Notes: a model not told the origin generated them from the sequence alone. A DNA stretch of 64,000 nt from Candidatus Dormiibacterota bacterium (GCA_963823765.1 CAWGML010000002.1:1404709-1468708), one strand, 5' to 3'; shown: positions 1 through 31,414, counted from the stretch's first letter. Program-made: numbers and translations.

Positions 1-1
1 G

Positions 2-2204
2 ACTGCACTGGCCACCGTCCTGCTCGTCGCCGCGACCTCCGCCACGGTGTACGCCGCGCCGCAGGCCGCAGCGTCCACTGCCGCCGTGGCATCGCACTTC
101 GTCCTCGACGGGATCCACCTGAGCGTCGCAGGTGACGCGGTGCCGGCGGGCACGCCGTTCTCCGTGGCGTCCGCCGGCACCGCCGGCCCCTCCGCGTCGG
201 CGACGACCCACAACCCCTACCGCGAGCTCACCATCAACGCGGTGCCGTTCGCGACGAGCGACGGCGCTGAGCCGGTGATCGGAGTGGCACGAGCGGGCGG
301 CACGGCGTCGATGCGCAGCGCCCTCCAGGCGTTTCGCGCAACGCAACACGCGACCCCTCTCGGCAGCTACGCCGCATCGCTGTTCGGTTCCATGGTCGTG
401 GGCGATGCCAGCCTGCTCAGCCTGCGGCTCGAACTCACCTCAGACCGTGCTGACCGTCGTCGTCGAGTGGGTCACCCAGGCGGGCCCGCGAGCCTGGCTG
501 GTGCGTGCGGCAGCCCAGGTCGGCACGACGTCGGTGGCGGCGACCGCGTCCCGCCTTGCGCACCTCGTGGTCGCCGCCGGCGATGTCTCGACAGCCACGA
601 CCCTCGCTGCAGGACCAGCCTCGAGCGGCACCGGCAGTGGCGCCACCCAGGCGGCGCCGGTCGCCGGGAAGCAGGCGAGTGCGCAGGCGGGTGGCCTCAC
701 CTTTCCATCGTGGTGGAACGGCAACTGCGACACCGCCAACTACGCAGCGGGCGCACAGCAGCAGTGGGGCCGACCGGTGGCGGCATACCCGCTGAGCCCA
801 GGCGCGACATGGTTCGGCCTCGAGGCATGTGGTCCGCGCCCCGGCTACGGTGAGGGGCCCGATGTCGGCGCTCGCTTTCCCGGCTCGAGCTGGGGGGTTC
901 TCGAGTGGGAGTGCGTCGAGCTGAGCATGCGGTACATGGATCTCGCCTGGGGAGTGCACCCGTACCCGGCCAACGGCAAGGACGTCGTCTGGAACTATGC
1001 GAGCACACACAACCAGTTCAACCCGTCGGGCCCAGCGCTCGAGGCGATCTCCAACAACGGCAACGGTCCGCTCCCGCAGGCGGGCGACGTCCTCAGCTAC
1101 GGAGCCACCAGCAGCTTCGGACACACCTCCGTGGTGACCGCTGTCAATGTCAACACCTCAGGCAACGGCAGCGTGACGGTGCTCGAGGAGAATGCGTCGG
1201 CGAGTGGCTGGGCCGCCGTGCCTGTCACCTCGTGGGTCCTCGGCGGCTATGACGGCGGCGTGAGCGGCTGGCTGCACAACCCGGGCTTCCAGCCGGTGCC
1301 GTCGAACGCACGCGCCGCGATGCGCGCCACGGACGGCAGCACGCGCACGTTCTTCGGCCTTGACACGTCGTCGCCGGTCTTCGGCAGCAACTGGTCGTAC
1401 GAGGGCGGTGGTGCACTGGGCGCGCCCGCTGTCGTCTCGGTGCCGACTGCCAGCGACCACGGCTCGCCGTTGTACATCGTCACCGGGCTCGACCACAACG
1501 TGTGGATCCGCAGCGACGCCGCAGACTGGCGCTCGCTGTCGCCGTTTGCCGTGTACTGCACGGGGGCGCCCGGTGCGACAGTGGTGGCGCAGACCCCTGG
1601 ATCCTCGGGCACGTACGTGCTGGTGGTGGCCTGCCGAGGCGCCGACGGCGCGCTCTGGTACGCGCAGACCCCGATATCAACCAACCTGGCGACGCTGCCG
1701 TCCGCCCGCGCCTGGTGGGGCCTGGGTGGCGGCATCACCGACGCGCCTGCCGTCGTGGCCGTGGGGCGTTCGGGCAGCCTGCAGAGCGAGCTCACCTTCC
1801 TCGTCAACGGTGTCGACGGCCGGGTGTGGACCAGGACCGAGGCCTCGCAGTGGACCGCAACGTCGCTGGGTTGCGTCAACGACCTCGCCGCGGCCGCCGT
1901 CCTCACGACCTCGTTGGTGAGCACGTTCGCCTGCGAGGGTCCTGACCACGCGGTGTGGATCACAAGCAACACCGGTGCGGGGTGGAGTCCCCCCATGTCG
2001 TTGGGCAACTGGGTCCTGGACAGCCCCGGGATCGTCCTCAGCCCCACCTCGTTCACCGTGGTGGCTGAGGGCAACGACACGGCCATGTGGGAGACGACCA
2101 GCCCAACCGGCAGCCTCGCGTTCGGTGCCTGGACGTCGGACGGCGGATCGCTGAACGCCGGTGTCTCCGCCACAGCGCTGCTCCCGTCGACCGCCAACCC
2201 CTGA
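2..2204 (+). CDS. Secreted CHAP-domain peptidoglycan hydrolase with C-terminal six-repeat Trp-rich (lectin-like propeller) domain; 5'-partial, +1 frameshift at ~432
   Basis: Frame +2 is open from the window edge with a signal-like TALATVLLVAATSA. Removing one A in GAACTC (431-436) joins it to ORF 405..2204. CHAP motifs are ECVELSMRY, ANGKDV, GDVLSY, GHTSVV and EEN. Confidence 0.75.
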
Positions 2205-2276
2205 CCTCGTCGGGGCAGGCCTCAGGTCGAATCAGAGGACCACACCATCGCAGCGTGGTGCCCTAAGGTGACCGGG

Positions 2277-4794
2277 ATGCTGGAACCTCGCTGGCGCGAC
2301 GGCTCGTCCAGCCGCCCCGGCACGAGCGGGCGGTCGGGCGCCGGGACAGCCCGCATCCTGTCTGCGGGCGCGATGGTGGCCATGGTGCTGGCCGCGCAGG
2401 CGACCATCGGGTCGCCAGGAACTTCAGCAGAGGCGGCCGGTCCCGTGTATGACTGGCTCCAGTTCGACGGCACCCAGGCTCAGCAGGGGGACAACACCCT
2501 GGAGAGCGTGATCAGCCCGTCCGACGCCCACGCGCTGACCCTGGCATTCCGCGTCGGCCTTCCCAGCGTCGCAGACGGGGCGCCGGCATACCTGCACGCC
2601 GTCTCGACGCCGACCGGGACTTCGCGACCTGCTGTTCCTGACCACCAAGGACGGTCACATCCTCGCGGTGGACGCGCACACCGGGGCCCAGGTGTGGAGC
2701 CAGCAGCACGGCCCGGGGGGGTGCGGCGTCAACAACGGCACCACGCCGTGCTACACGACGTCATCGCCTGCCGTCGACCCCAACGGTCAGTGGGTGTACA
2801 GCTACGGCTTGGACGGCAGGGTGCACAAGCACGCCGTCGGCACCGGGACCGAGTCCACCACCGGCGGCTGGCCGGAGCTCACCACCACCAAGCCGTTCAA
2901 CGAGAAGGGCTCCTCCGCGCTCAGCATCGCGACCACCGCCGGAGGCACGTACCTGTACGTTGCCAATGGAGGCTACATCGGTGACAACGGCGACTACCAG
3001 GGCCACGTCACCACGATCAACCTGGGTACCGGCGCGCAGAACGTGTTCAACACGCTGTGCAGCAACCAGCCCGTCCACTTCGCGCAAAGGCCGGCGTCGC
3101 CGGACTGCCCCCAGGTCCAGTCAGCGGTCTGGTCCCGGCCGGGTGTCGTCTACGACCCGGGCACCGGGAGGATCTTCCTCAGCACCGGCAACGGCGACTT
3201 CGCCCCGTCGGCGCACGACTGGGGCGACAGCGTCCTCGCGCTCAACCCCGACGGCACGGGGAGCGGCGGAAACCCGCTGGACAACTACACCCCGGGGAAC
3301 TTCGCCAGCCTGCAGAGCAGCGACCTGGACCTGGGCAGCACCGCGCCGACAGTCATCCCGGGGATCGGGAGGTACCCACACCTCGCGGTCCAGGGAGGCA
3401 AGGACGGCATCCTGCGCGTGCTGGATCTTGCCAGCCTGAGCCAGCAGGGAGGCGTCGGCCACAACGGCGGTGACGTCAGCCACATCAACCTTCCCCAGGG
3501 CGGCGAACTGCTGTCTCAGCCGGCTGCCTGGGTCGACCCGAACGGGCACGCCTGGGTGTTCGTGGGCAACGACCGTGGGATCGCCGGCATCCAGGTGGGT
3601 CTCGCGGGGGGCAACACCCCCGCCCTGTTCGCCAAGTGGCAGCATGGCGGCGGCGCCACGAGCGGCATCACGTCGCCCCTGGTGGCCAACGGCGTGCTCT
3701 TCTGGGCCAGCCAGGCGGGGATCACCGCGTACGACGCGGCCACCGGGACCCAGCTCTGGCAGGACCCCACCATTGGTGGCTTTCATTGGGAGAGCCCGGT
3801 CGTGGCCAACGGCGCCATGTACATCACCGACGAGAGCGGCCATCTCAGTGCGTACGTCCCGCACGCCGGCTCCGGGATCCCGACACGCGCAGCCGGGCGG
3901 GCGACCGACGGCACCGGCTGGATGACGACCGGGAACGACGCCGCGCCGCCCGTGTTCGGCGGCACGTGGTCCAGCCTGAACACGGGCGCGATCATCGGGT
4001 CGGCGGCGGCGGTCTCCGTGCCTGGGTCCGCTGGCGGTGTCCCCTACTACGTGGCCACGGGGTCGGACCACAACGTGTATGTGCGCAGCGAGAGCGTCTC
4101 CTGGCGGTCGTTGTCACCACCCGGGACGAACTGCACGAGCAGCCCGGCGGCAACGTCGGCATATGAACGTGCCTCCGGACAGACCCTCCTCGTCGTAGCC
4201 TGCCGTGGCGCTGATGGGGCGCTGTGGTACGTGTCGGGGGCGGTTTCCGCGAACCCTTCGGTCCTGCCATCAGCCAGCGGCTGGAAGTCACTCGGCGGTG
4301 GCATGACCACTGACGGCCCGGCGATCGCCGCGATACCGCCGTTCACCTCCGTGAACAACGACCTGACGTTCCTTGTCAACGGGCTCGACGGGCAGGTGTG
4401 GGCGCGGACGCTGTCCGCCTCGTGGTGGCAGACCCCGTGGGGATGCACGGGCCACCTCGGGGCTGCAGCCGTGTCGAGCAGCATCTTCCAGGTGTTCGCC
4501 TTCGCCTGCCAGGGGAATGACGGGGCCGTCTGGATGGCGACCGACCGGGGCGGGTCCTGGAACCTCTTCTCCCTCGGCGGGACAGTCCTGGACGGCCCCG
4601 GCATCGCCCTCGGCCCGGATTCGATCACCGTGGTTGCCGAGGGTCGAACCGACCATCAGGTCTACCAGGACACCAGCCTCACCATCAACCCCACCAGCAA
4701 CGTGCCCTTCAACGGCTGGGCGCCGGCGGCGGGAAACGTGAGCAATGGTGCTACTGCTGCGGCTCTGCTGACACAGGCCGACAGCACCCCCTGA
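2277..4794 (+). CDS. Secreted PQQ-type beta-propeller protein with the same C-terminal six-repeat domain; +1 frameshift at ~2622
   Basis: ORF 2268..2984 (signal peptide, DWLQF) joins ORF 2668..4794 on removing one T in GACTTC (2618-2623). PQQ-like Trp-docking motifs AVDAHTGAQVW and AYDAATGTQLW, plus SSPAV and SPVVANG. The ATG at 2277 follows TAAGGT by 7 nt. Confidence 0.7.
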
Positions 4795-7700
4795 TCAGTT
4801 GGCCCGAGGCGGCGTGCGGGCCACGATGTACACGCCGGATGCCGCGGGACGCAGCTCGTCGTGACTCACCAGGGCGTCCAGTTGCTTGAGCTCGTCGACG
4901 ATCTTCGTCAACCTCTGTGAGGGCACCTTGCCGGGGAGGTTGACGCTCTTCAGCAACCAGTCGACGGTGAATGACAGCTCGCCGAACCAGTCCGCCTCGA
5001 GGATCTCACACGATTTGAAGAGCTCTTCGACGCCCCACGGGGTCATGTTGAAGAAGTGGTACGGCACGGCGTGGAGCGGCTGCATGAACGCCACCTCGGT
5101 GAGGATCAACCCGCCGGGCTCGGTGACCCGGATCAGCTCGTTGGCAGCGTCGAACGGGTTGGCGATGTGCTCGAACACGGCCTGGCTGAACACGAACGTG
5201 AAGCTGTCATCAGCGAACGGGAGGCTGTGGATGTCGCCGTACGCGTCGGCCAGCTCGAACTTCAGGTACTCGAAGTTGAGGTGACGCGGGTTGGTGCGCC
5301 GTCGATCACCGCCGCCGACCTCGAGGATCAGCGCGTCCGACGGAAGTGCGGCCAGGTGTCGCTCGATCACATCGCTGTAGGGGTTGCCGCGGTTGATCGC
5401 CGCGGGTTCCGCGAAACCCTCCGGTGTGCCTGTCGGGCCCAGCAACACCAACTCCTCGACGAGGACCTGCGCGCCCGCCGACGCGGGCGAGCCGACGCCG
5501 CGGGGACGGACGGCCAGGGTGTGCTCTGCAAAGGGCAGGTCCTCTGCAGCGGCAACACCGATCACCGCAGATCCCTCGGCTTGGAAGAGGTCGATGCTCG
5601 ACGTCAGTCGATCGTCCACGAAGATGTCCACGACACCGGACGACGGGTGCGTGTAGAAGCGCACGATGGCATCGGTGAAACGCCCCTGGAAGCGGATGGA
5701 ATCGGTCAGGGAACCGTCGGAGTACAGTCCGCCGGCGCCGTGGGGGTGCCAGCCCCCGGTCACCACCAGGCTGGGGTCGGCTGCAGGCAGGCGGCGTTCG
5801 CCCGGCGTGGTGATGACACGCAGTGGTTCGGCCGGCCGCCGCCCTCGGTCGTCCGGCCGGAAATCCAGCTTGAAGTTGCTGACCGTGGCGATGACGCCGC
5901 ACCGCTCGCACACAACCTGACCAGACTTGATGCGACCGTCCTCTGTGGCGACCGCGGCAACAATCTCCGGTCGCACGCGGCACGCGGGGCAGACCAGTCG
6001 TTCCAGCACGTCCCCGCCAGTCACGCGAGGTTGCCGGGGGCTGTCGTGCGGCGCCGCCACCGAGGACCCCTCATGGTGGCCGGCCGGGGCTGACGGCGCC
6101 GTCGCCACGGGAACCGCCGGCGACGTCGACGACGAGGGGGTTGACGCGGTGCCGCTGACATCCCTGCCGGCGAGCAGCGCGTACTCGTGGCTGATCCCCT
6201 CGACCATCCGTGTGACGCTGTAGCGTTCCTCGAACAGGAGGCGGGAGCGACGACCATATTGCGCACGCAGCTCAGCGGATTCGAGCAGCCGCGCCACCGC
6301 GGCCTGGAGCGCGCCGGCGTCCCCGGGCGGGATCAGGTAACCGTTGCCCGCATCCTCGACGATATCCGTCATGCCCCCGACACGGCAGGCCACGACCGGC
6401 TTCCCGAAGCGCATCGCTTCGAGCAGGATCAACCCGAACGACTCGTATCGCGACGGAGCCACGAAGACGTCGCACGCGGCGTACTCGGCGAGCAGCTCGT
6501 CGTCATCAAGCACGCCGGTGAAGCGGACCCGGTCCCGCAGCTGCCTGCCGATCTCCGACTGCTCGAACGCCTGCCGCGGGGTGCGACCGTCGGTTCCGGG
6601 GTGAGTGTCCTTCCCCACGATCACGAAGCACGCTGCGGGGAAGCTCGCGGCCAGCGACGGGACGGCTTCCAGGAGGGTGTCGATCCCCTTTCGTGGTTCG
6701 AGCCGCCCAACGAACAACACGGTCAGCTCGTCGTCCTTCCTGGTGACCTCCGGAGCGGCCGTGTCCGGTAAGGCGTGGCCCACATAGCCGATGCGCCCCG
6801 GGTCCAATGACAGCCCATAGCGCTCCTCGATCTCGGTGACGATCGCCGGGCCACAGGCCAGCAGGAGGTCGGCCCTGGTGTAGCAGAACCGTTCGACCTG
6901 CTCCAGCTGGGCGAGTGTCGTGCTCGGCGCGGCGAGCACGGGGTCGACGGCACGCGTGGATTTGAGAGGCGTGTACAGGCCGAGCACGGTCTTGAATCCG
7001 CCGGCGAGCAGGACGGCGATCCCCTCCGAGTCCCAGTTCGGTGCCTGGACGACGTCCACCGGGCGCTGACCGTTGATCCTGCGCAGCTCGTCGAGGAGGG
7101 TCGCCGAGTAATCCCAGATCTCCTGAGGCACAGGGATGTCCGCGGGCGTGGTGTGGGGGCGCACGAGCAGGCGATGGACCCACACACCGTCCTCGAGGTC
7201 CACCCGATCGTGGCCGGACCCGCGGGTCAGCACATGCACCACGTGGCCGGCGGCGGCGAGGCCTGAGGCGAGCGTGTGCACGACTCGGGCGATTCCGTTC
7301 AGCTGCTGCGGCGGCCATTCCTGGCTGAAGAGACACACGGTGAGGCGCTGCTCGGCCGGTCGGAGCAGCGGAAACCGCAGCAACGGCTCCGGCGACGCGA
7401 AGAAGTCCGGTGAGCGGTTACCGCGACCCCCGGCCAGGTGGGCCCGCAATCCGTCGTCGAACGCGCGAGGGACGTCGGCCTCGAAACGGCGCGCGTCGAC
7501 CGCGTCCAGAGTGCCCTGCTCCACATGCCAGCGGAGGTCGCCTCTCTGGGTGTCGACAACGTCGGTGAGCCGGCGGCAGACCTCGGCGAACGAGCTGTGG
7601 CCGAGGCCGTGCTTGAGCGCAAAGTAGCAGGTGTTCTTGAGCACAGCGTAGCGGTCGCGCAGCGCGCGATCCGACGTACGGATGTCGCTCGACAGGAACT

Positions 7701-8346
7701 TGTGGTACACGTAACCGTCATCGAGGGCACGGATCACCAGCCCCCTGTTCACCAGGCGCAGGCAGGCGTCGGTCTCCTCCAGGTAGTACTCGAACTCCTC
7801 GTCGAAGCCGCCGATCTCCACCAGGCGCGCGCGCAGGAACGAGGAGTTGGTGCCGATCGTGTACAGGAACTCCTCAGTGGTGGGGCTGTTGTGCGTCCAG
7901 GTCGGGTTGGGTCCATCGTTGTCGACGCGCGCCACCCCGAAGCGGTTGGCGAGGCTGTACCGAGCCTGGAGCTTGGCCCCCGTGTGGTCGTACACGGGGC
8001 CGCCGACCGCTGCCACCTCCGGTGTGTGGTACCCCTCCACGATCCTGTCGAGCCAGGCAGGATCGGGGTACGCGTCATCGTCGATGAATGCGACGATCTC
8101 GCCCGCGGCCCGTGCGACGGCGATGTTCCGTGACATCGCGAGGTTCGGCTCCGGGCACTTGGCTGTCTTCACCGTGCCCGCGTAATCGGCTAGCACGGTG
8201 TCGGTGTGGTCGGTTGACGGCCCGTCGACCACGACCACCTCGAAGTTCGGATAGTCGAGCTGGCGCAGCGATGCCAGGGTTCTCCTCAGGCTCTCCGCCC
8301 GGTTGTAGGTGTTGACGACGACCGACACGGTGGGGGCCCGGCTCAT
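4795..8346 (-). CDS. Multidomain glycosyltransferase: GT2 + GT4 + CxxC/CxxC Zn ribbon + beta-sandwich + class I SAM methyltransferase
   Basis: VVVNTYNR and AFIDDD (GT2); FVGRLEPRKG and PSRYESFGLILLEAM (GT4); CPAC and CERC; LILEVGGG and LPFADDSF (methyltransferase). The ATG overlaps the upstream stop. Confidence 0.85.
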   Translation of the reverse strand: MSRAPTVSVVVNTYNRAESLRRTLASLRQLDYPNFEVVVVDGPSTDHTDTVLADYAGTVKTAKCPEPNLAMSRNIAVARAAGEIVAFIDDDAYPDPAWLDRIVEGYHTPEVAAVGGPVYDHTGAKLQARYSLANRFGVARVDNDGPNPTWTHNSPTTEEFLYTIGTNSSFLRARLVEIGGFDEEFEYYLEETDACLRLVNRGLVIRALDDGYVYHKFLSSDIRTSDRALRDRYAVLKNTCYFALKHGLGHSSFAEVCRRLTDVVDTQRGDLRWHVEQGTLDAVDARRFEADVPRAFDDGLRAHLAGGRGNRSPDFFASPEPLLRFPLLRPAEQRLTVCLFSQEWPPQQLNGIARVVHTLASGLAAAGHVVHVLTRGSGHDRVDLEDGVWVHRLLVRPHTTPADIPVPQEIWDYSATLLDELRRINGQRPVDVVQAPNWDSEGIAVLLAGGFKTVLGLYTPLKSTRAVDPVLAAPSTTLAQLEQVERFCYTRADLLLACGPAIVTEIEERYGLSLDPGRIGYVGHALPDTAAPEVTRKDDELTVLFVGRLEPRKGIDTLLEAVPSLAASFPAACFVIVGKDTHPGTDGRTPRQAFEQSEIGRQLRDRVRFTGVLDDDELLAEYAACDVFVAPSRYESFGLILLEAMRFGKPVVACRVGGMTDIVEDAGNGYLIPPGDAGALQAAVARLLESAELRAQYGRRSRLLFEERYSVTRMVEGISHEYALLAGRDVSGTASTPSSSTSPAVPVATAPSAPAGHHEGSSVAAPHDSPRQPRVTGGDVLERLVCPACRVRPEIVAAVATEDGRIKSGQVVCERCGVIATVSNFKLDFRPDDRGRRPAEPLRVITTPGERRLPAADPSLVVTGGWHPHGAGGLYSDGSLTDSIRFQGRFTDAIVRFYTHPSSGVVDIFVDDRLTSSIDLFQAEGSAVIGVAAAEDLPFAEHTLAVRPRGVGSPASAGAQVLVEELVLLGPTGTPEGFAEPAAINRGNPYSDVIERHLAALPSDALILEVGGGDRRRTNPRHLNFEYLKFELADAYGDIHSLPFADDSFTFVFSQAVFEHIANPFDAANELIRVTEPGGLILTEVAFMQPLHAVPYHFFNMTPWGVEELFKSCEILEADWFGELSFTVDWLLKSVNLPGKVPSQRLTKIVDELKQLDALVSHDELRPAASGVYIVARTPPRAN

Positions 8347-9581
8347 GCCCCCGCTCCGATCGCCCACCCCAGCGAGTCCTGCTCGAGCGCCTCGACGAGC
8401 AGTTCGCCGTGCGTGCTGCCGGCAGCGGCCTCAGCCAGCATGTCGAGGAAGCCACGTCTGTAGGCCTGCGGTGAGTACTGCTCCACATGGGCCGCCACGG
8501 CCTCTCGCCACCGGTCCTCGGACAGACGACGCTCCCCGACGGGTAGCCACAGCGTCTCCCCCGACTCCCGCGCGGTCTGGACGGTGGTCACGTAACTCCT
8601 GATGGCCTCCGCCAGTGCCGACACGTCACCGGTGGGGACGAGCGTGGCCAACCCGCCCACGATGTTGGGAAGGTTGCCCGCGTCGTAGGCGATCACGTAG
8701 CAGCCTGCCGCCATCGATTCGATCACCGGCAGGCAGAAACCCTCGTGGTATGAAGGGATCACCAACGCATCGCTCGCCGCGTACAGGTCCGCGAGCTGCT
8801 CGTCGCTCGGCGAGAGCACCAGCTCGACGACGCCGCCGAGACCCTCGCGGGCGATGGCATCCTCGACAAGCTCGATGCACCCCGGCGACGAGAAGGCGCG
8901 GTGACCAGCCAGGGTGACCGTGAAACCGGCCGTGCCCGACCGGGCAACGGTGGCCACGGCGTCGACAAGGTCGATGACCCCCTTGGCGCGGACGAAGCGA
9001 CCGACAAAGAGCAGCCGCACCCTCTCCGAGCGCGGGGAGCGCGGCTTGGGCCTGATGGCCGGTGGCAGGTGAAGGACCGTCAGGTTCTCCCTCGGTATCC
9101 CGAGGGCGAGCAGGTCATCGCGGTTGAACTCACTGACGCAGGCAACCCGGTGGGCCCAGAAGAGGTTGTTCTTCTGCACCAGCGACGCCTCGAGCGTGGG
9201 ACGCAGCTCGGGCTCGGCCAGCGCGGGCGGGGTGACGTTGTGATAGGCGGCGAGCACCGGCTTGCCACGCAGAAGAATGATCGCATTGAAGAGCTCGTAG
9301 CGGATGCCGAACTCGAAGAAATGAAGGTCCGCCTCATGAAACTCACGGTGAGTGGCGAGCTGGTGGACGGTGGCGGCGCGCCGGATGCAGTCGCGGTTGT
9401 AATCGGTCGCCTGAGTGAACACCGTCACCCGCACCGGCACGCCCGCACCCGCGAGCTCCGTCAGGATGTCCAGCTTGAGGCGAAGGCTGTCCGATATCGC
9501 GTCAGCGTGCAGGAAGACGCCGGAGTAGAGCGCGACGTGAAACGTCGGCGACCGGACGACGCCCGCCGGCGGCGGGTGCAC
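8343..9581 (-). CDS. GT4 family glycosyltransferase
   Basis: YHNVTP, LLFVGRFVRAKG and PSYHEGFCLPVIESM. Start is placed at the GTG just after the upstream stop. Confidence 0.85.
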   Translation of the reverse strand: MHPPPAGVVRSPTFHVALYSGVFLHADAISDSLRLKLDILTELAGAGVPVRVTVFTQATDYNRDCIRRAATVHQLATHREFHEADLHFFEFGIRYELFNAIILLRGKPVLAAYHNVTPPALAEPELRPTLEASLVQKNNLFWAHRVACVSEFNRDDLLALGIPRENLTVLHLPPAIRPKPRSPRSERVRLLFVGRFVRAKGVIDLVDAVATVARSGTAGFTVTLAGHRAFSSPGCIELVEDAIAREGLGGVVELVLSPSDEQLADLYAASDALVIPSYHEGFCLPVIESMAAGCYVIAYDAGNLPNIVGGLATLVPTGDVSALAEAIRSYVTTVQTARESGETLWLPVGERRLSEDRWREAVAAHVEQYSPQAYRRGFLDMLAEAAAGSTHGELLVEALEQDSLGWAIGAGA

Positions 9582-9582
9582 G

Positions 9583-10437
9583 CTACCTCGTCGCCTCCGC
9601 GGCCTCGGGTCGACACGCGACGATCTCCATCTCGAAACAGGCGCCGTTGCGCCGGCCCACCTCGGTGCTGCGCACGTCCCGGAAGCCGGCCTCCTCGAGC
9701 AACGAGCCGAGCGAGTTGACAGTGAACATGTTGAAATGGAAATCGCCGTCGTATTCCTGCCCGCCATAGGTGACCAGGCGCAGGTCGTCGAACCCATATC
9801 TCCCGGCCGCGTACTCCTGGATCATCGTCTCCGCGTCGGGTACCACCGCGACGAACGCGGCGCCTGGGCGAAGCAGCGAGTACCAGTACGGCAGCAGTGC
9901 GCGCCGCAGCTGCTCGACGGGGAAGTGCTCCAGGAGGTGTGCGGAGAAGATCTCGTCGACCTCGCCCTCGCCGAACGGAAGACGTCCCACGTCGGCGACG
10001 ACGTCCACACCGGGAAGTGGCCGGCCGTCGACGTTGATGTATCCGTCGCGCGCGAGGTGGCCGGCGCCCAGGTTGAGTTGGATCGGCCCGGCCTCGACCT
10101 TGGCGGTGTTCACGACACGAGGTTCCTGCTCATAGCTGGCGCCTTCGCCCCTGGCGCCATGGCGCATCTCGAAGAGCATCTCGGTGCGGACGAACTCGAG
10201 CCGTGACTCCACCTGCCCGATGCGATCGTCGAGACGCTCCTCCGAACGCCGCGCCTGGCGCGCCACCGAGTTCTGCGTGGCGATGGCGTTGAGCAGGGTT
10301 GGCACGTACGCCTTGATGGCCTCGACGTCGGCGGCGATCGGACCCGCCCGCCGCTCGAAGCGTGCGTCCACGTACCGGATGAAGGGCCGGACGAATGGGT
10401 GGAGGACCTTCTTGACGAGGTTCTTCAGGGACTGCAC
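9583..10437 (-). CDS. SAM-dependent methyltransferase-domain protein with N-terminal helical/coiled-coil region
   Basis: LNLGAG, YINVD, LPF, AHLLEHF and LLRPGA motifs. Confidence 0.75.
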   Translation of the reverse strand: MQSLKNLVKKVLHPFVRPFIRYVDARFERRAGPIAADVEAIKAYVPTLLNAIATQNSVARQARRSEERLDDRIGQVESRLEFVRTEMLFEMRHGARGEGASYEQEPRVVNTAKVEAGPIQLNLGAGHLARDGYINVDGRPLPGVDVVADVGRLPFGEGEVDEIFSAHLLEHFPVEQLRRALLPYWYSLLRPGAAFVAVVPDAETMIQEYAAGRYGFDDLRLVTYGGQEYDGDFHFNMFTVNSLGSLLEEAGFRDVRSTEVGRRNGACFEMEIVACRPEAAEATR

Positions 10438-10444
10438 CGGAGCC

Positions 10445-11783
10445 TCATTGCGGACTGGTGGTCGCGTCTGCTGGGCGGCGGATCATCGTAGGCCAGACGT
10501 TGGTTCCCCTGTCGTCGATCCGCACCGCCAGCCGGGTGGCCACCTGTGCCTCGCCCGTGGCGTGGACCAGGAATTGTGCCGTCCACCTGAGCTCCTCGAG
10601 GTCGAATGAGAGAACGATGTGGTTCCACGAGTTCGGGCGACAGGTCGCGTCCGCGAACCTCACGGCGCACGATCACAGGATCCGCGCCTCCGGCGGCGGC
10701 CACCTCGAGGTTGGCGACCACCGCGTCGGTTGCAGCGGGCCCAGCGCCACGGCGAAGTGCGAACTCGACGTCGTAGTGGCCCGGTGCCAGCGGCATGTAG
10801 GGCCCGGCCATCAGCACGCCGCTGGTCCCCACCGGGGCTGTGGCGACGCGAACGCCGTCCTCCACGCGCACGACGCCAACGTCGGAATGGAGCCGGTTGG
10901 CGCGCTCCGGCCACGCGGACGAGAAGATGTCCGCGTGCCGCCGGCGCACGGCGTCGATGTCGGCCACTCGATCAGCGCGCCTGGCTTCGAGCCACCACAC
11001 GAAGCTATGGTCGGGATAACGCGCGGCCACCTGGACTCGGCGCAGGAGCTCCGTCGGGGACGCGCCGGCCTCATACGGGTCCAGCGGCAGGATGGCGCAC
11101 GAGTCGGGGTCGCGAGTCAGCCACACTCCACGGAGATCGACGACGTCGAAGCCGGCCAACTCCACCAGCTCGCCGGCTTCGGATGGCGTGAACTCGATGG
11201 TGTGTTCATTCATGCTCCAGCACAGCAGGCGTGCGATCTCGCGGTGCGGCGAGTTGATGACCAGGTGACCGCCGGGGTGGACCACACGCGCGCATTCGGC
11301 GAGGAAACCGACGACGTCGTCACCGAAGAGGTGCTCGATGTTCTGGCCCGAGAATAGGAGATCGACCGAGCCATCGGCGACCTGCGGCATGTGGGCAACA
11401 CTGGTGTCGATCCATTCCACTCCCGCGGGCAGGTCGTCAGGACGCGGCACGTAGCGTTCCACCCCGATGTGCCGAGCCACAGGCCCGTAGTGCTCGTCCA
11501 ACCAGTCGAAGTACCAGCGACCAGAGCATCCTGCGCTCAGCAGGACGCGGGCCCCCTTGGGCATCCGCGACAGCTCGACGGTCCGCTGGGCGTGGAGCAG
11601 GTCATGAAAGTTGTGAAAGAGCGGCGTCGGCGGCAGGGTCGCCGTCGGGATGCGGTCCGTGAGGTCACGGATGGGCGCGCTCAACCCCGCCACCACCCGC
11701 GCGCTGATCCCGTCGAGCAGGCGGCGCACCGGGTATCGGACAGCGGCGCGAAGCTGAGCGCCGGCGGGGCGCGCCTCAGGCAT
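10445..11783 (-). CDS. Class I SAM methyltransferase with C-terminal beta-sandwich; +1 frameshift at ~10632
   Basis: LLSAGCSG, SVDLLFSGQNIEH and RVVHPGG; C-terminal GPYMPLAPGHY. Joins ORF 10445..10663 after removing one base in GAGTTC (10629-10634). Confidence 0.7.
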
Positions 11784-12618
11784 CGGTGGCGCGCAGCCGG
11801 CCCACCGGCAGCTCAGCGCCGGCGGGTGCCGCGCCGGCGGTGGCGACGCGCCTCGAGTTGCGCCCGCGCAGCGACGCGAACCGCCGGCCACCGCGCTTGC
11901 GACCTACGGCCAGGACAGAGGTGCCGAACGGAAGGCTCACTCTCTCCACGATGCGAGCTTCGATCCGAAGGAACGAGGTGAAGAGCCAGTTGATGGCGCG
12001 CGGCAGGATGACGTACGAGCTGCCGGGGGTACGCCGGGACGACAGCCCGGTGAGCAGACGGAATGCAACCACCAGCGGGAACGAGAAGGTGATGACATAG
12101 GAGCGGCGGATCACGTCGAAGCCCGCGTCGTTCAGCCTTCGGTGCACCTGTGACGCTGTGTAGCGGCGGAAGTGATGCAGGCTTTCGTCGTGCTCGCTCC
12201 ACAGCCACTGGTACGCGGGCACGGTGAGCAGGGCTATCCCCCCGGGCTTGAGCACGCGGTTCCACTCGTCGAGCGTGGCGACCTCGTCCTTGATGTGCTC
12301 CAGCACGTCCGTGGCGACCACGATGTCGAACGAGCCATCCTCGAAGGGCAATCGGGAGCCCTCCACGTGCACGAGCCGCTCATAGCCCCGCCTGCGGCAG
12401 TAGTCGATGGCCACATGTGCGACATCGGCGTTGGTCACCTCGCCGTACTGTTCGAGGATGGTTATCATGCCCCCCGTCCCGCAGCCGATGTTGAGGATGC
12501 GCGGTTGGTCGGGCAGTGGCAGGGCGTGCAGTTGGTGGCCGATGATGCTTCTGCGGCCGACGTGCCACCAGTAGGTGTCCTCGACCTCGGCCATGCGATG
12601 GAATTCGACTTCGTTCAC
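11776..12618 (-). CDS. Class I SAM-dependent methyltransferase
   Basis: EDTYWWH, ILNIGCGTG, DVLEH, TVPAYQWLWSEHDESLHHFRRY. The GTG overlaps the upstream TGA. Confidence 0.85.
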   Translation of the reverse strand: MNEVEFHRMAEVEDTYWWHVGRRSIIGHQLHALPLPDQPRILNIGCGTGGMITILEQYGEVTNADVAHVAIDYCRRRGYERLVHVEGSRLPFEDGSFDIVVATDVLEHIKDEVATLDEWNRVLKPGGIALLTVPAYQWLWSEHDESLHHFRRYTASQVHRRLNDAGFDVIRRSYVITFSFPLVVAFRLLTGLSSRRTPGSSYVILPRAINWLFTSFLRIEARIVERVSLPFGTSVLAVGRKRGGRRFASLRGRNSRRVATAGAAPAGAELPVGRLRATDA

Positions 12619-13838
12619 GGTACCAGCGGGGCGGTCTGCCACGTGATGATGCCGACGAACACAACGGTCGCGAGCGCGCCCTGGAGCATGGCGAGGCTGC
12701 CGGCCATGCTGCTCTCGAACCTCTTGGGCACGTGGGCGGCGATCGCGGCGAACAGCGGGAAGGCGACCAGGCTGTACCGCGGGACGCTGACGGGCCAGTA
12801 GGGGCTGAGCGCGATCAGCGCGCTCCCGGCAGCGTAGATCAACCACTCGAGCGGGACCGTTCGGTGCTGCACCGCCAGCCGCGCCAGGAGGACGGCGCCC
12901 ACGAGAACGAACACCAGCGCGCCCGCGGCGACCACGTCGCCTGCGCTCGACCACGTCGATGGCTGGCTCACGAGATGCCAGAGCGACTTGAATGGCGTGG
13001 TGAACCAGACGAAACCACCGCCCCAGAGCTTCTCCGCTTTGAGGAATGCGAGCGGAGAACCCGTGCGTGCCAGCTGGTACCCACTCCATGCGAGGAAGCC
13101 GAGCGGTGCCAGGACGACAGCAGTGAGCGGACGCCACTCCCGACGGGAGATCGCAAAGCGCAGCCCGACCACGACACACGCCAGCACCAGGACAACCCCG
13201 CTCACACGGGTGATGCACGCGATGCTGGCGGCGATCCCGGCAAGCTCCCAGCGCCGCGCCCCGAGGAAGTAGATGCACAGTGCCGCGAACGTCAGGAACA
13301 TCCCCTCGGCATAGACCATGCTCAGGCTGAATGCGGCGGGGAAGAAACAGACCAGGACGACGGTGAAGCGGGCGACCTCACTGCCGAGCACCTGGCGAAC
13401 CGCGAGCCACACCGCGATCGCTGCGGTGGCACCGAAGATGAAAGCCGTCAGGATGCCGGCGTGCTCGTAGGACAGCCCGGTCACGCTGGCCACACCCTTG
13501 ACCACTGCGGGCAGCCCGGGGAAGAAAGCCCACCGATCTCCTCCGGCCGCCTCCCTGGCGACGTTCGACGGGTACCCGGATCGCGCGATCATCAGGTACC
13601 ACGACCCATCCCAGCCTGACAGCGCCTGTCCGATGGTCAATCGGCGCTGGTACCACGTCGCCACCAGCGCACTTCCCAGCACGGCCACGCGCGACAGCAG
13701 GTACACCAAGACCGGGGTCGCAATCGCCGGCATGCGCCAGGCAACGCGGGCGTGGTTCCGTTCAGGTGCCGCTGCCACCTGATGCTCTGCTTCGGCGACA
13801 GCCACAGCGGGGCGCGGCACGGTGGAGAGCTCGCTCAT
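12615..13838 (-). CDS. PIG-V-like (GT-C) mannosyltransferase family membrane protein
   Basis: WDGSWYLMIARSGY, AFFPGLP and SMVYAEG motifs, a C-terminal PRY, and multiple TM segments. Confidence 0.8.
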   Translation of the reverse strand: MSELSTVPRPAVAVAEAEHQVAAAPERNHARVAWRMPAIATPVLVYLLSRVAVLGSALVATWYQRRLTIGQALSGWDGSWYLMIARSGYPSNVAREAAGGDRWAFFPGLPAVVKGVASVTGLSYEHAGILTAFIFGATAAIAVWLAVRQVLGSEVARFTVVLVCFFPAAFSLSMVYAEGMFLTFAALCIYFLGARRWELAGIAASIACITRVSGVVLVLACVVVGLRFAISRREWRPLTAVVLAPLGFLAWSGYQLARTGSPLAFLKAEKLWGGGFVWFTTPFKSLWHLVSQPSTWSSAGDVVAAGALVFVLVGAVLLARLAVQHRTVPLEWLIYAAGSALIALSPYWPVSVPRYSLVAFPLFAAIAAHVPKRFESSMAGSLAMLQGALATVVFVGIITWQTAPLVP

Positions 13839-15322
13839 CAATCCTGCTGCAGTGGTGGGCGCACGGAGAATGCGTCCGCGGTCATCGTCTGGGGCGTCGT
13901 TGCGGACAGCCGTGGGCGCCGCCGTGTCACCAGAGTCGCGGCGACCTCGACAGCGACGATCAACGTGAGCACGGTTCCGCCGGCGACGATGGGATAGATG
14001 TAGCGATAGACCGCCGAGGGAAGCGCGAACACCATGACGCCCAAGTAGACTAACAGGGCAAGCGCGAGCAGGGCATTGACGCGATCCGCAGCTGACCGCC
14101 GACGACCGAACCAGGCGAGTGAGACGGTGAGAAGTATCGCGTACGCCCACGGCAACTCCAGCTGCACGGTGTCGGTGAACTCGGACACGTAGCTCATCGC
14201 CGCGTCGTGCGCGCTCGGGTTCGCCAAAGCCCAGGCATCGCCCGGCGGGGGTGGGCCGACCTCGTGCGGGTAGAAGGCCGGCGCGTCGATCGCAAGCAGG
14301 TGCAACGCGAATCTCAGCCGTGCGTGAAGATACGCGCCAGGGTGACGCTCGATGGCCTGGAGCCACGCGTGCTGCAGCGACGCGTAGCGTGCTCCCTGCA
14401 GCGGGAAGCCGACGATCAGTGGCGTCGTGCTGAACTCGATCGGATCGGCCGTGGTCGTGCTCGACCGCTGTCTGAGCGGCAGCAACGTTTGCGCGGGGTA
14501 CACGTCGGCCGGAAACAGCACCACAGCTTCGGCGCGCGACATGGCCGCCAGGTCGTAGATGTACGTGCCCTGCGCAGGGGAGGCCTGGCCGGTGTGGAGC
14601 ACCCCGCTGTCGAGGCCAGTGATGAGCGCGGCGACAACTCCTGTTGACACGACGGCACCGACGGTGCCGAGGAGGCCCAACCTCCACCGAGGCAATCGCC
14701 GTCCGCCCACGGCCGTGAGGCACACCCCCATCAGGATGAGGAAGCTCACCGGGACCGCCGTGAGGCGCGTGCACGCCACCAGGAACGCGGCCGCCACGGC
14801 GAGCGCCAGGTACACCACCCGGCCGCGACCGACCACGCTGGTGGCCCGGGCGAGACATCCGAAGCCGAAGATGGCCAGGGCGGCGAACCACGCGTCGACC
14901 CCCACCTGGACGTCCCATGCGAGGACGGGGGGGAAGACCATGCAGGCTGCCGCCCCGGCGATCGCCCACGGCCGTGACAGGCGGGTGCGCAGCAGCAGGT
15001 AAGCGCCGGTCAGCAGCGTGAGCAGGCTCCCGGCGAGGACCCAGCCCGGGCTGCGCAGGCCCATGAGGATCGCGATCCGCCAGATGGCCACCAGCACGGG
15101 GGCGTGCCAGCCGTCTATCTGGCCGGTGGCTGCCTGGTTGTATTCGTCGGTGGTGTCCGGATCGACGTTGCCCGGCCAGAAAACCAGGCAGACCACGACG
15201 GTGGCGAAGACGAGCGCCGCCGCGGCGAACAGGCTGGGAAGCGAGGCTCGCCAGGCCCGCGGTGGGCGAGCATGCGCTGCCGCTGGCACCCGTTCCTGAG
15301 GAGCCGCTTCGGTCGGGGCCAT
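13838..15322 (-). CDS. Polytopic membrane protein, probable GT-C glycosyltransferase
   Basis: N-terminal TM followed by the loop PG..DPDT..EY.QA.TG.IDGWH.P; about 10 TM segments; large external loop; C-terminal YRY. Confidence 0.55.
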   Translation of the reverse strand: MAPTEAAPQERVPAAAHARPPRAWRASLPSLFAAAALVFATVVVCLVFWPGNVDPDTTDEYNQAATGQIDGWHAPVLVAIWRIAILMGLRSPGWVLAGSLLTLLTGAYLLLRTRLSRPWAIAGAAACMVFPPVLAWDVQVGVDAWFAALAIFGFGCLARATSVVGRGRVVYLALAVAAAFLVACTRLTAVPVSFLILMGVCLTAVGGRRLPRWRLGLLGTVGAVVSTGVVAALITGLDSGVLHTGQASPAQGTYIYDLAAMSRAEAVVLFPADVYPAQTLLPLRQRSSTTTADPIEFSTTPLIVGFPLQGARYASLQHAWLQAIERHPGAYLHARLRFALHLLAIDAPAFYPHEVGPPPPGDAWALANPSAHDAAMSYVSEFTDTVQLELPWAYAILLTVSLAWFGRRRSAADRVNALLALALLVYLGVMVFALPSAVYRYIYPIVAGGTVLTLIVAVEVAATLVTRRRPRLSATTPQTMTADAFSVRPPLQQD

Positions 15323-15356
15323 CGCCCGATTCTAGGGGCGATAGCGCAGAGCGGCG

Positions 15357-17586
15357 TTAGGGGTTGGCGGAACTCCGAGAGCAGCGCAGCGGCTCCCGCA
15401 CCGGTGGTGACGTATCCACCGGCCGGCGTCCAGGGACCCGAGTTGGTCTCCTGCCAGAGGCCATGGTCAGCTCCCTCGACCACCACCGTCCAGTTCCCGG
15501 GAGCGACCGCCAGGCCCGGCCCGCCGATGACGCGTCCGCCGAGGGAGAAGGTGTTCCAGCCTGCGCCGCTGGACGTGGCCAGCCACACCGCCTGGTCAGT
15601 TCCCTGGCAGCCGAAGCCGGTCCACTGCCGCGTGTCTCCCATCGCCGCCGCCGCTGGCTGCCCGACACATGCCCACGGCATCTGGACCCAGGTCGGCGAG
15701 GCGAGGGTGCGGCTCCAGACGCGGCCGTCGAGATCGTTGACGAAGAAGGTCAGCTCGGTGTCGACGTTGTTGAACGGCGCCACAGCGGCGATCGCCGGCG
15801 CGTCGGTGAAATCCTCCCCCAGCGAGGTGAACCCCGGGAGGGAGGGCAGGCTGAGCGGGTCCGAGGCCGCCGGTCCTTTGGCGTACCAGAGCGCACCGTC
15901 AGCACCGCGGCATCCCACGACCAGCAGATACGTGCCCGGTGTCCCGGGGGTCTGGGCGACGGTGGTCGCTCCAGGGCCGCTCGTGCAGTAGACCGGTGAG
16001 GGTGTCAGCGGTTGCCAGGTCTTCGATTCACTGCTCACCCAGAGGTTGTGATCACTTCCTGTGGCGATGTAGAACGGTGTCGCCGGCGCCGATGACCGGG
16101 GTATGCCGGCGACCGCGGGCGTGCCGATGATCGACAGCCCCAGGCCGTGCCAGCTCTTCGCGAAGACGGGACGCGCCGCGGAGGTTCCACTCATCCCCCA
16201 CGCCGTGCCATCAGCGCCCGCGACAGCCACGCGCGCGTCTCCGCCGAGGGCCCCGACGGCGTGCTGCACGTTGAGCTTGGCGGCGACCTCGTCCCACAGT
16301 GCTCCCGCGTCGTATCCCAGGGCCCAGATGCCGACCCCGCGCAAGTGGAGGCTGTTGACCAGGTCGTACTTGGCTCCGAGTGACTGGGCGTTGTCGTAGA
16401 ACAGTTCGCGCCAGGAGTTGTGGTTGCCCCCGCAGGGGTCACCGCTGGCGGGGCTCCACCACGTCGCCCAGGGCTCCTGGTATGTCGTGTCGTAGTGCTG
16501 TGCGAGCTGCGGAGCGCAGCCGAGGTCGGCCACGACGCTGGCGTACGTGTCTGCCTGGGCCGACCCGTTGGCGCACCCGCCGTTGACGCCGGCGCCCTCG
16601 GCGGGCTGGGTGACGCACCACTTGTAGCCGTAGTAGGGGACGCCGAGGATCACCTGCTGGGCGGGCACCAGGCGCAGGAACTCGTTCATCGTCGTTGTGT
16701 CGCTGTACCGGTTGCCGTTCAGCGGAGCCACAGGTCCGGCGTTGGATGAGCCGGGGTAGGTGATGTCGTATGCCATCACGTCGAAGGCGTCGACATACGG
16801 GCTGAGGTGGGAGATGTCGAACATCGTTCCCCCCTCCGCGGCGCTCGCATACGTGTCGACAGTCAGGTAGGAGCTGGCCGGCACCCGGCTGCGGAGCGCG
16901 GCCCCCAGCTGGGCGACGAACGTGGTGAAATCGGACGGGTTCACCGTGGGCGTCGAACCCTCGAAGTCCACGTTGACGCCGTCGCCGCCGCGGCTGGCCA
17001 GCTGACCGACGACGTTGTTGATCGCGTTCTGGCGATTGGCCGCGGAGCCGACGAGCGCTTCGATCGACGCCGAGCTGAACACCTTGATGGTGAGCACAGC
17101 GCGGTCGCCTGCCCAATGCGCGGTGTTGATCAGCTGGGTGGTCTCGCCGCTCCACCACCCGGAGTAGCCGGCGTCATTGATGACGGTGCCGTTGGCAGCG
17201 AGGTTGATGCCGAAGTAGGCGACCGTGGTCAGGCGTTGGAACTGGATGTCCGTCCGCCAGGCGCCGCTGGTCACCTCGCCGTACTGGGCGAAGCCGAGCA
17301 CCTCCGTGGTGCCAACGTTGGCAGCGCCTGCCCGCGCGGCCCCGCGGAGGGCGCCCGCCTGGCGCGCGGGCAGCGGTACGCGCGGATGCAGGAGTGGGCC
17401 GGCGGGCGCCCCTCGTGGGATGGACTGGTTGGGAGGGCCGGTGGTGTCGTCGAACGCCTGGTGGGCACTCGGCCCGGGCTGCACCGGGGGGACTGACGCC
17501 GCGGCGTCGACGTGCGGGATCGCGCCCCCACCGCCCGCGAGGATCGCGACGGCCGGCAGCACCAAGGCCAAGGCTCGGCTCTTCAT
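15357..17586 (-). CDS. Secreted GH18 glycoside hydrolase with the shared C-terminal six-repeat domain; +1 frameshift at ~15371
   Basis: Signal peptide; DGVNVDFE, VMAYD, LGVPYYG and GVGIWALG. Removing one base in GAACTC (15370-15375) gives the end ...LLSESANP-TAA, matching the paralog end LLPSTANP. Confidence 0.85.
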
Positions 17587-17696: not shown

Positions 17697-18659
17697 CTAG
17701 GCCTGCGGGGTCGCGGACCCGGTACCGCCCCCGCTCCCATAGCCACCGGGCGGCTGCGAGGCACCGAGCGTCGACCAGGCCACCGCGCCGGACGGCGCGG
17801 CGACCGAGGGCGCCTTCCCCCAGGCGCTGAAGGTGTCCGTGCTGCTGCTGCCGCTCCCGCCGCTGCCCGTAAGGGTGGAGACGTACGAGATGGGCAGATG
17901 GGAGCCGGCTGCGATGTCGAGGTGGGCGGTGCCGGTCACTCCCAGCTGGGGGGGCGCCGTCCCCGAGATGCGCACCGTGCCGGCGGAGAGCGTCCTGCTC
18001 GAGACCGGGACCAACCCTGCCTCGCCCACCTGGTCGGTGACCGTGATCCCCGGGGCGACCACGCCGTAGGGGCCGTCGCCGCTCGAGACGGAGATCCACC
18101 TGCCGGCCAGGCCCGGAGCGGTTGCAGCCGGCACCCCCAGCTGGTCCTGCAACGCGGGCCCGTTGCCCTGGAAGTAGACGATGCCGCTCACCAGCACCAG
18201 GGAGAATCGCTCCGGGCCGTAGGTCGAGTCCATGGTGATGTCCTGGGTGCCGCCGTAGCGCCCGGCGTCGCCAACGATCGTCTGGTTGCCGATGCCGCCG
18301 CGCGAGACGCCGACATAGTGGAACCCGGCGGACGCGCTCGCCGCGGCGACGGCCTGCTCGTAGAGCGCCCTCGCCTGGGCCACCGCGGTGCTCGCCGGGC
18401 TCGGACCGATGGACTCCGTCGTCGGCGGGGCAGGCGCACTGCTCCGCGTCAGGAAACCGATGGGCACGCCCACCCCGACCCCGGCGATGAGCGCGCCCGC
18501 GGCCGCGGTCATGGCCAGCAGACGGCGGCTGCGCCGCGTGGCCGGCGTCGTGGCCGGGGAGGGAGGCGGGGGCGGTGGTGCGTACCCGGCGCCGGCCGGA
18601 GCGCCGGGTCCCTGCGCCCCGGGTGCAGGGTCGAAATGGTCGGAGCGAAGCTCGGTCAT
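17697..18659 (-). CDS. Membrane-anchored extracytoplasmic protein, possibly LppX/LolA-like fold
   Basis: Pro-rich N-terminus, RR followed by a single TM, then a beta-rich domain (GIVYFQG, GRWISV). Confidence 0.45.
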   Translation of the reverse strand: MTELRSDHFDPAPGAQGPGAPAGAGYAPPPPPPSPATTPATRRSRRLLAMTAAAGALIAGVGVGVPIGFLTRSSAPAPPTTESIGPSPASTAVAQARALYEQAVAAASASAGFHYVGVSRGGIGNQTIVGDAGRYGGTQDITMDSTYGPERFSLVLVSGIVYFQGNGPALQDQLGVPAATAPGLAGRWISVSSGDGPYGVVAPGITVTDQVGEAGLVPVSSRTLSAGTVRISGTAPPQLGVTGTAHLDIAAGSHLPISYVSTLTGSGGSGSSSTDTFSAWGKAPSVAAPSGAVAWSTLGASQPPGGYGSGGGTGSATPQA

Positions 18660-31334: not shown

Positions 31335-31414
31335 GCGCGGCGAGTGTAGCCGCGAGGTCCCCGACGGCCGATGCAGACGGCCGGCCTGCGCCGGCGTTCT
31401 CGTACCATCGTGCG

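Follow-up and report, generated by a model that had tools for sequence, protein, structure and literature searches.

In Firmicutes, the ways in which surface enzymes are anchored to secondary wall polymers have been studied in detail, with SLH, choline-binding and GW modules as examples. SLH domains dock on a pyruvylated secondary wall polymer with a linked csaB gene, and CWB2, LysM and SH3b domains likewise belong to the known wall modules. To our knowledge, hardly anything is known of such anchoring in uncultured soil lineages of high GC content. A second relevant group comprises the ABC-transporter-dependent polysaccharides, whose methyl caps are read by Wzt_C (WbdD/Wzt of E. coli O8/O9a); the Geobacillus protein WsaE is a methyltransferase-rhamnosyltransferase. 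The present analysis concerns a stretch of 64,000 nucleotides from Candidatus Dormiibacterota bacterium (GCA_963823765.1 CAWGML010000002.1:1404709-1468708), referred to as the window. Near its start, a seven-gene glycan and methyltransferase operon is bracketed by secreted proteins that share a C-terminal propeller of the PLL/PHL lectin type (the type-A tail), and comparison with other genomes of the genus indicates that such tails can be exchanged on orthologous enzymes.

Like the SLH/CsaB-type systems, this locus combines one binding module, carried by many secreted wall or surface proteins, with polymer-making or polymer-modifying genes nearby. It differs from them in that the fold and chemistry of the module are unrelated, the tail type switches between species of a single genus, and the case is known from sequence alone. 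The methyl-capped ABC-transporter systems also contain glycosyltransferase-methyltransferase fusions, and in same-genus relatives of the window's source a Wzt with a Wzt_C domain lies beside methyltransferases and tail clusters; however, those systems possess Wzm/Wzt, whereas the window's operon has neither and the wzt of its genome is fragmented. The nearest printed precedent that we found for a propeller of this sort meeting a bacterial wall polysaccharide is a preprint on the PilX2 pilus adhesin of Nanosynbacter lyticus (bioRxiv 10.64898/2026.10.06.756255), the available portion of which describes a predicted heptabladed propeller that resembles fucose-binding lectins and is tied to wall polysaccharide recognition. 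PilX2 is a pilus-tip adhesin aimed at the wall of another bacterium, while the tail described here is presumed to be self-directed. No paper describing PLL-type propellers as tails or anchors of wall enzymes was found in the literature outside subscription journals and supplements, and none of the DUF346 papers among the matches listed concerned wall anchoring, as far as their titles and the first lines of their abstracts indicate.

Three proteins of the window end in a common domain of ~300 amino acids (aa) and bracket the operon. A sequence-only reading of the window had named these three; the domain and its positions are real, but the tally is four tailed proteins, plus a fifth gene in which a PLL-type propeller is joined to YkuD. 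The CHAP protein (1..2204, plus strand; Pfam CHAP 8.2e-8; tail 1290-2204) starts ~37 bases before the window and has a signal peptide. It is followed by a PQQ/BamB-like propeller protein (2268..4794, plus strand; tail 3880-4794) with a BamB-like match at 1.8e-4 and homologues, P0005 and P0059, that carry PQQ_2. Beyond the operon lies a secreted GH18 protein (15115..17586, minus strand; GH18 5.8e-26; tail 15382-16254) whose signal peptide can be read directly. The fourth protein, which joins FG-GAP to a type-A tail, ends 47 bases before the window. Four type-A tails are thus found within 18 kb, with signal peptides on the GH18, FG-GAP and CHAP proteins; pairwise identity to the first tail is 45-49%, and 61 columns are invariant across the four copies. 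The fifth propeller gene, located ten kb further upstream, fuses canonical PLL-type repeats to a YkuD L,D-transpeptidase and is frame-disrupted (L006 ~8300).

All five propeller genes and the operon are housed in a strain-specific segment of ~29 kb (about 28.8 kb; C2:1393526 to window ~17640). In three genomes of the same genus (G305, G314 and G312), a PlsC-type acyltransferase gene directly adjoins pyrD and the homologue of the gene at 17697, while ~28.8 kb separates them in the window's genome; the segment with the propeller genes and the operon is not present at the equivalent site in these three. The suggested co-location of tailed genes and operon is therefore borne out, since both belong to a joint segment that is missing at that site in same-genus genomes.

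Several lines of evidence identify the tail as a propeller of the PLL/PHL type. It consists of six repeats of ~50 aa with ~24 strands in ~300 aa, i.e., six blades. When a tail profile was compared to the sequences of the PDB, all eight matches were PLL-family chains, led by PLL5 (2.9e-24) and with PHL at 3.8e-21. An AlphaFold (AF2) model of the tail reached a pLDDT of 91.3, and the best 22 Foldseek matches listed were PLL/PHL structures (6.4e-14 to 4e-11), followed by AAL-type fucose lectins from 1.8e-6; the matches included PLL2 complexes with 3-O-methyl-glucose and with an O-methylated disaccharide. Pfam (even at E<=5, in a library without PF26607) and NCBIfam gave no match for the window's tails, including to DUF346. 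Tails from a genome of the same class (G256) do match DUF346 at 1e-6 to 5e-8, and the proteins P0011 and P0012 are labelled PF26607 in the database. The sequence-only reading had regarded the shared domain as a propeller lectin, which the PLL/PHL homology confirms, and had compared it to tectonins. The second comparison holds in part: the closest characterised relatives, PLL and PHL, do bind O-methylated sugars according to the available text of three papers (PMC6943638, PMC12203525, PMC5584973), but they are closer to the tail than tectonins are. Tectonin 2 of Laccaria bicolor and the tachylectins (in the reference list of PMC12203525) resemble the tail as propellers recognising O-methylated glycans; they are innate-immunity lectins of eukaryotes. 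A tectonin/tachylectin identity was rejected, as neither was among the 50 Foldseek matches listed and no sequence relation was detected. The PLL family (Photorhabdus PLL, PLL2-5 and PHL; Pfam DUF346 repeat) shares with the tail the W-motif repeats, the fold and the inter-blade tryptophan pair. Its members are free, soluble, seven-bladed lectins that bind foreign glycans, whereas the tail is a C-terminal, six-bladed module of secreted multi-domain enzymes with a presumed self target.

The tryptophan pair of the binding pocket is conserved in most blades of the tails. As described in the accessible portions of the structural work, PLL and PHL have hydrophobic inter-blade sites in which two tryptophans cradle the C6 methyl of fucose, and O-methylated saccharides occupy the same sites (PMC5584973, PMC6943638, PMC12203525). 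In PHL, the pocket is formed by the tryptophan of 'ALW' and the one preceding 'SLGG' (PMC5584973, available text). In the part of the study available, the main ligands of PLL lectins among the 634 glycans of an array were alpha-L-fucosides and a single O-methylated disaccharide, and the two kinds of ligand competed for one site (PMC12203525). PHL residue numbers were transferred onto the tails through the profile-versus-PDB alignment together with the accessible text of PMC5584973. One pocket tryptophan of the tails falls in a 'D-x-x-L-W' motif and the other lies three residues before 'L-G-G'. Across the four tails, the first position is tryptophan in 20 of 24 blade positions (otherwise three Tyr and one Phe) and the second in 21 of 24 (otherwise two Phe and one Met).

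Comparison within the genus provides the most interesting new element, namely the switching of tails in sets. The genus set comprised 18 other genomes, mostly fragmented, of which three counted ones (G173, G311, G313) are unpublished. None of the 18 has a type-A tail, and wider sampling found none in 294 of 300 other genomes of the phylum or in 105 of 116 members of the family. GH18 heads orthologous to the window's (E<=1e-112, 52-63% identity) were nevertheless found in eight of the 18 genomes (five of 15 without the unpublished ones). A tail of six different repeats, type B, occurs in nine of 18 genomes (six of 15 without the unpublished ones), in many copies, and is carried by the GH18 protein of G305, G307, G315 and others; the G305 head is 49% identical to the window's, while the tails cannot be aligned. 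For the type-B model (pLDDT 84.7), Foldseek likewise ranked PLL/PHL structures first (2.4e-19). By sequence, one unpublished protein (G173) reached PLL2 at 1.6e-4, a single sequence from a published genome had no match in the PDB, and a three-sequence profile matched only two serpin chains at E about 0.02-0.03. Sequence searches alone do not establish kinship between type B and PLL; the link between them rests on the fold search and is best regarded as a predicted one. A third tail, type C, is found in three of 18 genomes (G303, G304, G314); the GH18 protein of G303 and G304 carries it, and CHAP and fn3 proteins share it. Its repeat reads DGxGGxH...WxGWDIARG with a period of about 45 aa (L091:12286-13053, L092) and matches no Pfam family. 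No genome of the genus contains two tail types, and six of 18 contain none of the three. These comparisons show a set-wise replacement of tails within the genus, and three mutually exclusive tails on orthologous GH18 heads argue for a ligand that differs between strains.

The tail family as a whole is large and its partners are varied. A search of 1.84 billion cluster representatives recovered 1207 at E<=1e-3 and 167 at E<=1e-30, with the domain usually C-terminal; heads were scanned in 65 of the 95 that reached 420 aa or more within the top 150. Wall enzymes made up 12 of these 65 (GH25 in five, GH18 in four, CHAP in two and YkuD in one), other propellers 14 (NHL, Kelch, PQQ, PD40, SBBP), and Ig-like domains alone eight; eight more had other domains (GH43, subtilase, two phosphoesterases, CAP, DUF2961, RHS, DUF3466) and 23 had no recognisable head. 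The tail family is therefore found on wall-active enzymes well beyond the window, and M23, GH25 and YkuD fusions were also seen in other tail loci. This range of wall enzymes, propellers and Ig-like proteins matches the pattern of wall-anchoring modules, and the fusions with YkuD favour a target in the wall of the cell itself. A pattern-restricted search for loci returned eight in genomes and three in metagenomes, and the wider picture comes from the genome and representative searches.

The operon between the tailed genes consists of seven minus-strand open reading frames (ORFs) running from 15322 to 4795, abutting or overlapping with zero intergenic gap; ORF calls and Pfam searches confirmed the coordinates and content previously given for this tightly coupled unit. 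Its first gene (13838..15322) encodes a polytopic membrane protein with a large loop, eight transmembrane-like segments and no Pfam match, whose nearest Atlas clusters are RgtA/B/C/D-like glycosyltransferases (GT), DUF6020 and PMT, a feature similarity that serves as a lead only. The second (12615..~13841), also with eight transmembrane-like segments, is a PMT_2/PIG-V-like membrane protein with sub-threshold matches to PMT_2 (3.9e-5) and Mannosyl_trans2 (PIG-V; 1.5e-3) and a match to the NCBIfam cell surface glycopolymer formation family NF046093 at 8.6e-9. The expected pair of GT-C-type proteins is thus present as two polytopic proteins, although the assignment is weaker than claimed, with one sub-threshold and one lacking a Pfam match; the two are not paralogues, as they show no mutual similarity. 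Next come a class I S-adenosylmethionine-dependent methyltransferase (11776..~12620; Methyltransf_11 9.4e-22), the true start of which lies near 12620 within a longer ORF, a methyltransferase followed by about 250 aa of unassigned C-terminal sequence (10425..11891; Methyltransf_11 3.6e-10), and a probable methyltransferase with a weak match (9583..10437; Methyltransf_11 E 3e-4). Four methyltransferase domains had been counted, and four were found (one in a fusion and three in separate ORFs), but the one at 9583-10437 is marginal at 21.8 bits against a cut-off of 21.2. A GT4 glycosyltransferase (8343..9797; Glycos_transf_1 3.1e-23) precedes the last gene (4795..8367), an 1190-aa fusion of GT2 (6e-26, aa 15-140), GT4 (6e-42, aa 357-709) and class I methyltransferase (Methyltransf_11 2.2e-10, aa 1044-1089). 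No orthologue of this fusion was found in 30 relatives (18 of the same genus), which yielded just generic GT4 matches at ~37% identity. Upstream of the window, and divergent from the FG-GAP gene, are another methyltransferase and a GT2 resembling polyprenyl-phosphate-hexose synthases (L006:14886-16187), with an AglJ-type TIGR04182 match at 6e-47 and 160 bits, under the 325-bit cut-off. Together with this putative synthase, the GT-C-like proteins point to extracytoplasmic steps.

Tail genes and glycan genes are neighbours in some relatives and not in others. All three type-B clusters examined (G315, G307, G305) adjoin Wzm, Wzt with Wzt_C, methyltransferases, GT2, YfhO and sugar-nucleotide genes, and both type-C clusters examined (G303, G304) adjoin Wzm/Wzt, three methyltransferases, a GT4 and a PMT_2-like protein. 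In G346, a member of another genus of the same family that has the closest type-A tails (1e-87), two tail genes lie amid a GT2-GT4 fusion, a GT2-methyltransferase fusion and a GT2. G256 carries tails on GH18, M23, C39-like, CAP and PQQ proteins beside rmlCABD/YfhO and beside GT87/GT2/formyltransferase/WbqC/DUF2142. Linkage to putative polymer genes, as known from SLH/CsaB systems, is seen in the window, G346, G256 and the type-B and type-C clusters; it is not seen in ten of 14 loci outside the genus, a count made from the fetched flanks only and in which L007 and L071, identical in gene order, were counted once. The loci without relevant flanking genes are that of G224, four of five in G373, three in a Streptosporangiaceae metagenome-assembled genome (MAG), one in a Candidatus Dormibacteria MAG, one on a metagenome contig and G256:C169. 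Synteny between propeller and GT/methyltransferase genes in relatives holds for glycan genes in general within these clusters, but it does not extend to orthologues of the operon or to the ten unlinked loci.

Taken together, these observations suggest a strain-specific envelope island that joins a glycan module to a module of lectin-tailed proteins, a reading to which we give an even chance overall. In the first module, a glycan would be synthesised and modified by the GT2-GT4-methyltransferase fusion, the GT4, three methyltransferases and the two GT-C-like proteins, together with the upstream synthase and methyltransferase. The second would consist of the secreted FG-GAP, CHAP, PQQ-like and GH18 proteins, each ending in one six-bladed PLL/PHL-type propeller that most likely acts as a multivalent, non-covalent anchor to a glycopolymer of the cell's own wall. 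The tryptophan-lined pockets between blades would accept a methyl-bearing sugar, either a 6-deoxyhexose or an O-methyl sugar, and the adjacent genes would build or decorate the anchoring polymer. The parts of this proposal differ in strength. Anchoring to the wall by the tail is probable, and for the tail's ligand being the product of the neighbouring genes the odds seem evenly balanced; that the methyl group is the recognised feature is possible but rather doubtful. The sequence-only reading had the operon build an O-methylated wall glycan that the propeller reads. Of this, the docking idea is well supported by comparison, while methyl reading is plausible by analogy but weaker, as the methyltransferases are generic and just one of 14 loci outside the genus is flanked by one. 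The homology to PLL, along with methyltransferases beside three different tail clusters, makes the methyl-reading claim more plausible. A more specific version is tentative, namely that the tails may be exchangeable lectin addresses swapped as sets with the wall glycan cassette, with an O-methyl epitope here written by the methyltransferases of the island and read by the tryptophan pockets.

A number of observations weigh against this proposal. Occupied PHL sites have a threonine that contacts O3/O4 of fucose, and the blades of the first tail carry A, L, V, P or N in its place; the specificity of PLL/PHL is therefore not transferable to the tail, though the pocket type is conserved. The tail has six blades where PLL/PHL have seven, and a 6-deoxyhexose would fit the same pocket as an O-methyl sugar. 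All characterised PLL lectins act on foreign rather than self glycans, to the extent covered by the accessible parts of the literature. Since the same-genus genomes are kin, the type-B and type-C patterns count as about one event each. Outside the genus, glycan genes flank four of the 14 tail loci and a methyltransferase one, and no orthologue of the operon was found in the flanks of tail genes in any other genome examined. At or near the corresponding site, G119 and G312 carry glycan cassettes that include methyltransferases, but they have none of the three tails. In the operon, Pfam revealed no recognisable exporter or ligase and no Wzm/Wzt. Solved structures gave no methyltransferase substrate, as the matches were to generic class I enzymes: the PDB sequence search with the methyltransferase at 11776-~12620 returned one D-glucose O-methyltransferase (8.4e-8) among 51 generic matches, and that with the methyltransferase at 10425-11891 a single weak one. 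Finally, two or three of the five propeller genes (CHAP, PQQ-like and propeller-YkuD) are frame-disrupted.

There are several potential alternatives to an anchor whose ligand is made next door. The linkage may be real while the tail recognises a 6-deoxyhexose (rhamnose, fucose or another deoxy sugar derived from GDP-mannose), in which case the methyltransferases would just cap or decorate the chain. PLL/PHL complexes with L-fucose and L-rhamnose in the same pocket are among the Foldseek matches, Gmd is encoded in the conserved portion of the locus, rmlCABD adjoins the tail genes of G256, and RmlA lies beside type-B clusters; in addition, Wzt_C next to methyltransferases in relatives suggests chain-end capping, by comparison with E. 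coli O8/O9a. However, no deoxy-sugar pathway gene was found within the ~29-kb island, and four to five methyltransferase domains exceed what a single cap needs. We consider this explanation somewhat unlikely. It is also conceivable that the tail is a general anchor to an invariant component, such as the GlcNAc/MurNAc of peptidoglycan or a common polymer, and that the operon is its neighbour through the clustering of envelope genes in a hypervariable locus and makes an unrelated glycan. The ten of 14 loci outside the genus with no glycan genes nearby would fit this, as would the many peptidoglycan-active heads and the fact that the acyltransferase-pyrD site is variable anyway, with a tail-less cassette in G119. 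Three exclusive tail types on orthologous GH18 heads nonetheless point to a ligand that varies among strains, which peptidoglycan does not obviously do, and the PLL relatives are narrowly specific, for fucose and O-methyl sugars, on the 634-glycan array as far as the accessible text reports (PMC12203525). An invariant ligand is thus unlikely in our view.

Alternatively, the tailed enzymes could be secreted weapons or foraging enzymes directed at foreign fungal or bacterial walls that bear fucose or O-methyl sugars, the operon being unrelated or serving to alter the producer's own surface. Characterised relatives such as Photorhabdus PLL do bind foreign glycans of hosts and nematodes in the accessible text of the cited studies (PMC6943638, PMC12203525), heads of the family include GH18, GH25 and CHAP as well as one RHS-repeat protein and one subtilase, and the patchy spread of the tail, present in six of the 300 other genomes sampled from the phylum and in 11 of 116 from the family, fits transfer. 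The same tail, however, occurs on YkuD L,D-transpeptidases, enzymes that construct the wall of the cell itself, as well as on FG-GAP, PQQ, NHL and Ig-type proteins, which are non-lytic. Tail genes are also found repeatedly next to loci with which the producer exports its own glycans. A foreign target is accordingly judged distinctly unlikely, and attachment to the wall of the producing cell is preferred.

If self-anchoring by these tails is correct, the anchor would be a lectin fold otherwise known only as free lectins of an insect pathogen, and the tail type would offer a sequence-readable predictor of the type of wall glycan. Such tails could also supply naturally occurring lectins for methylated or deoxy sugars. 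In the version with a methyl epitope, a cell would sort proteins on its surface by means of a methyl mark that it places on its own sugars and then recognises. The tail idea is directly testable with a recombinant domain of ~300 aa.

The window has 70% G+C, and its source genome comprises 2.65 Mb on three contigs with an estimated completeness of 82.6%. At the right edge of the ~29-kb segment is a backbone gene (17697..18659, minus strand) of unassigned family, copies of which, 55-67% identical, adjoin pyrD in G314, G305 and G307; pyrD itself (18707-19699) is the next gene in the window. At the acyltransferase/pyrD site, G119 carries a different five-gene cassette (methyltransferase, GT2-GT4, methyltransferase and two DUF2142) without a tail, which marks the site as a variable locus for glycan genes. 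Upstream of the island, the conserved part of the locus holds Gmd, a GT4, a GT2_3 protein and Wzm, plus wzt (G000:C2:1378733-1379921, ~26 kb upstream of the window and 14 kb upstream of the island). This wzt matches the G305 protein in five pieces and three frames, and its Wzt_C part is just 24% identical to that protein, while the adjoining wzm is intact; the fragmented gene is either decayed or a badly assembled stretch. Omp85 and LpxC were not found in the genome, a result subject to its 82.6% completeness and consistent with a single-membrane envelope; the bacterium is probably monoderm.

Some of the tailed genes have irregular reading frames. In the CHAP gene the frame changes near 432, where the metagenomic homologue P0004 aligns at 20-433 in one frame and at 432-2201 in another with 62-74% identity. 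The PQQ-like gene has a signal-peptide-like N-terminus in the frame of 2268 and its body in the frame of 2539-4794, with a probable change of frame near 2600-2632. These disruptions may reflect decay or indel errors of assembly. The GH18 ORF reads on for ~100 Arg/Pro-rich aa (15115-15380) beyond the tail, overlapping the start of the next gene, while the other tails end ~10 aa after a conserved 'AALL'. The GH18 motif (window 16900-17000) is D-G-V-N-V-D-F-E, with the catalytic Glu in place but Asn where a second Asp is usual; the G305 orthologue has the identical substitution. Propeller-YkuD or GH25-propeller genes (L006:7691-11989; L007; L009) adjoin a Fur-family regulator and metal transport genes (NicO here, ZnuABC in two MAG records), which may be a matter of synteny or of metal-regulated wall remodelling.

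Two LytR-CpsA-Psr (LCP) genes had been proposed to attach the glycan. Both exist (31193..32479, plus strand, PF03816 5.4e-36; 34574..36127, minus strand, PF03816 1.6e-34), but they lie outside the island, beyond the pyrimidine operon, and are core genes, 70-83% identical in island-free relatives; the second was found at this identity in four of four same-genus genomes searched. Given this position and conservation, they may attach any polymer and have no specific link to the system. A PD40-repeat protein (32176-33510, plus strand) is encoded directly after the first LCP gene. Elsewhere in the window, one unbroken frame of 1525 aa (20500-25077, minus strand) contains CarA (small chain and GATase) and, after it, CarB domains; it looks like a carA-carB fusion, or else two in-frame genes with no intervening stop. 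A GT87-family (GT-C) glycosyltransferase (50679-52088, plus strand) lies amid central-metabolism genes.

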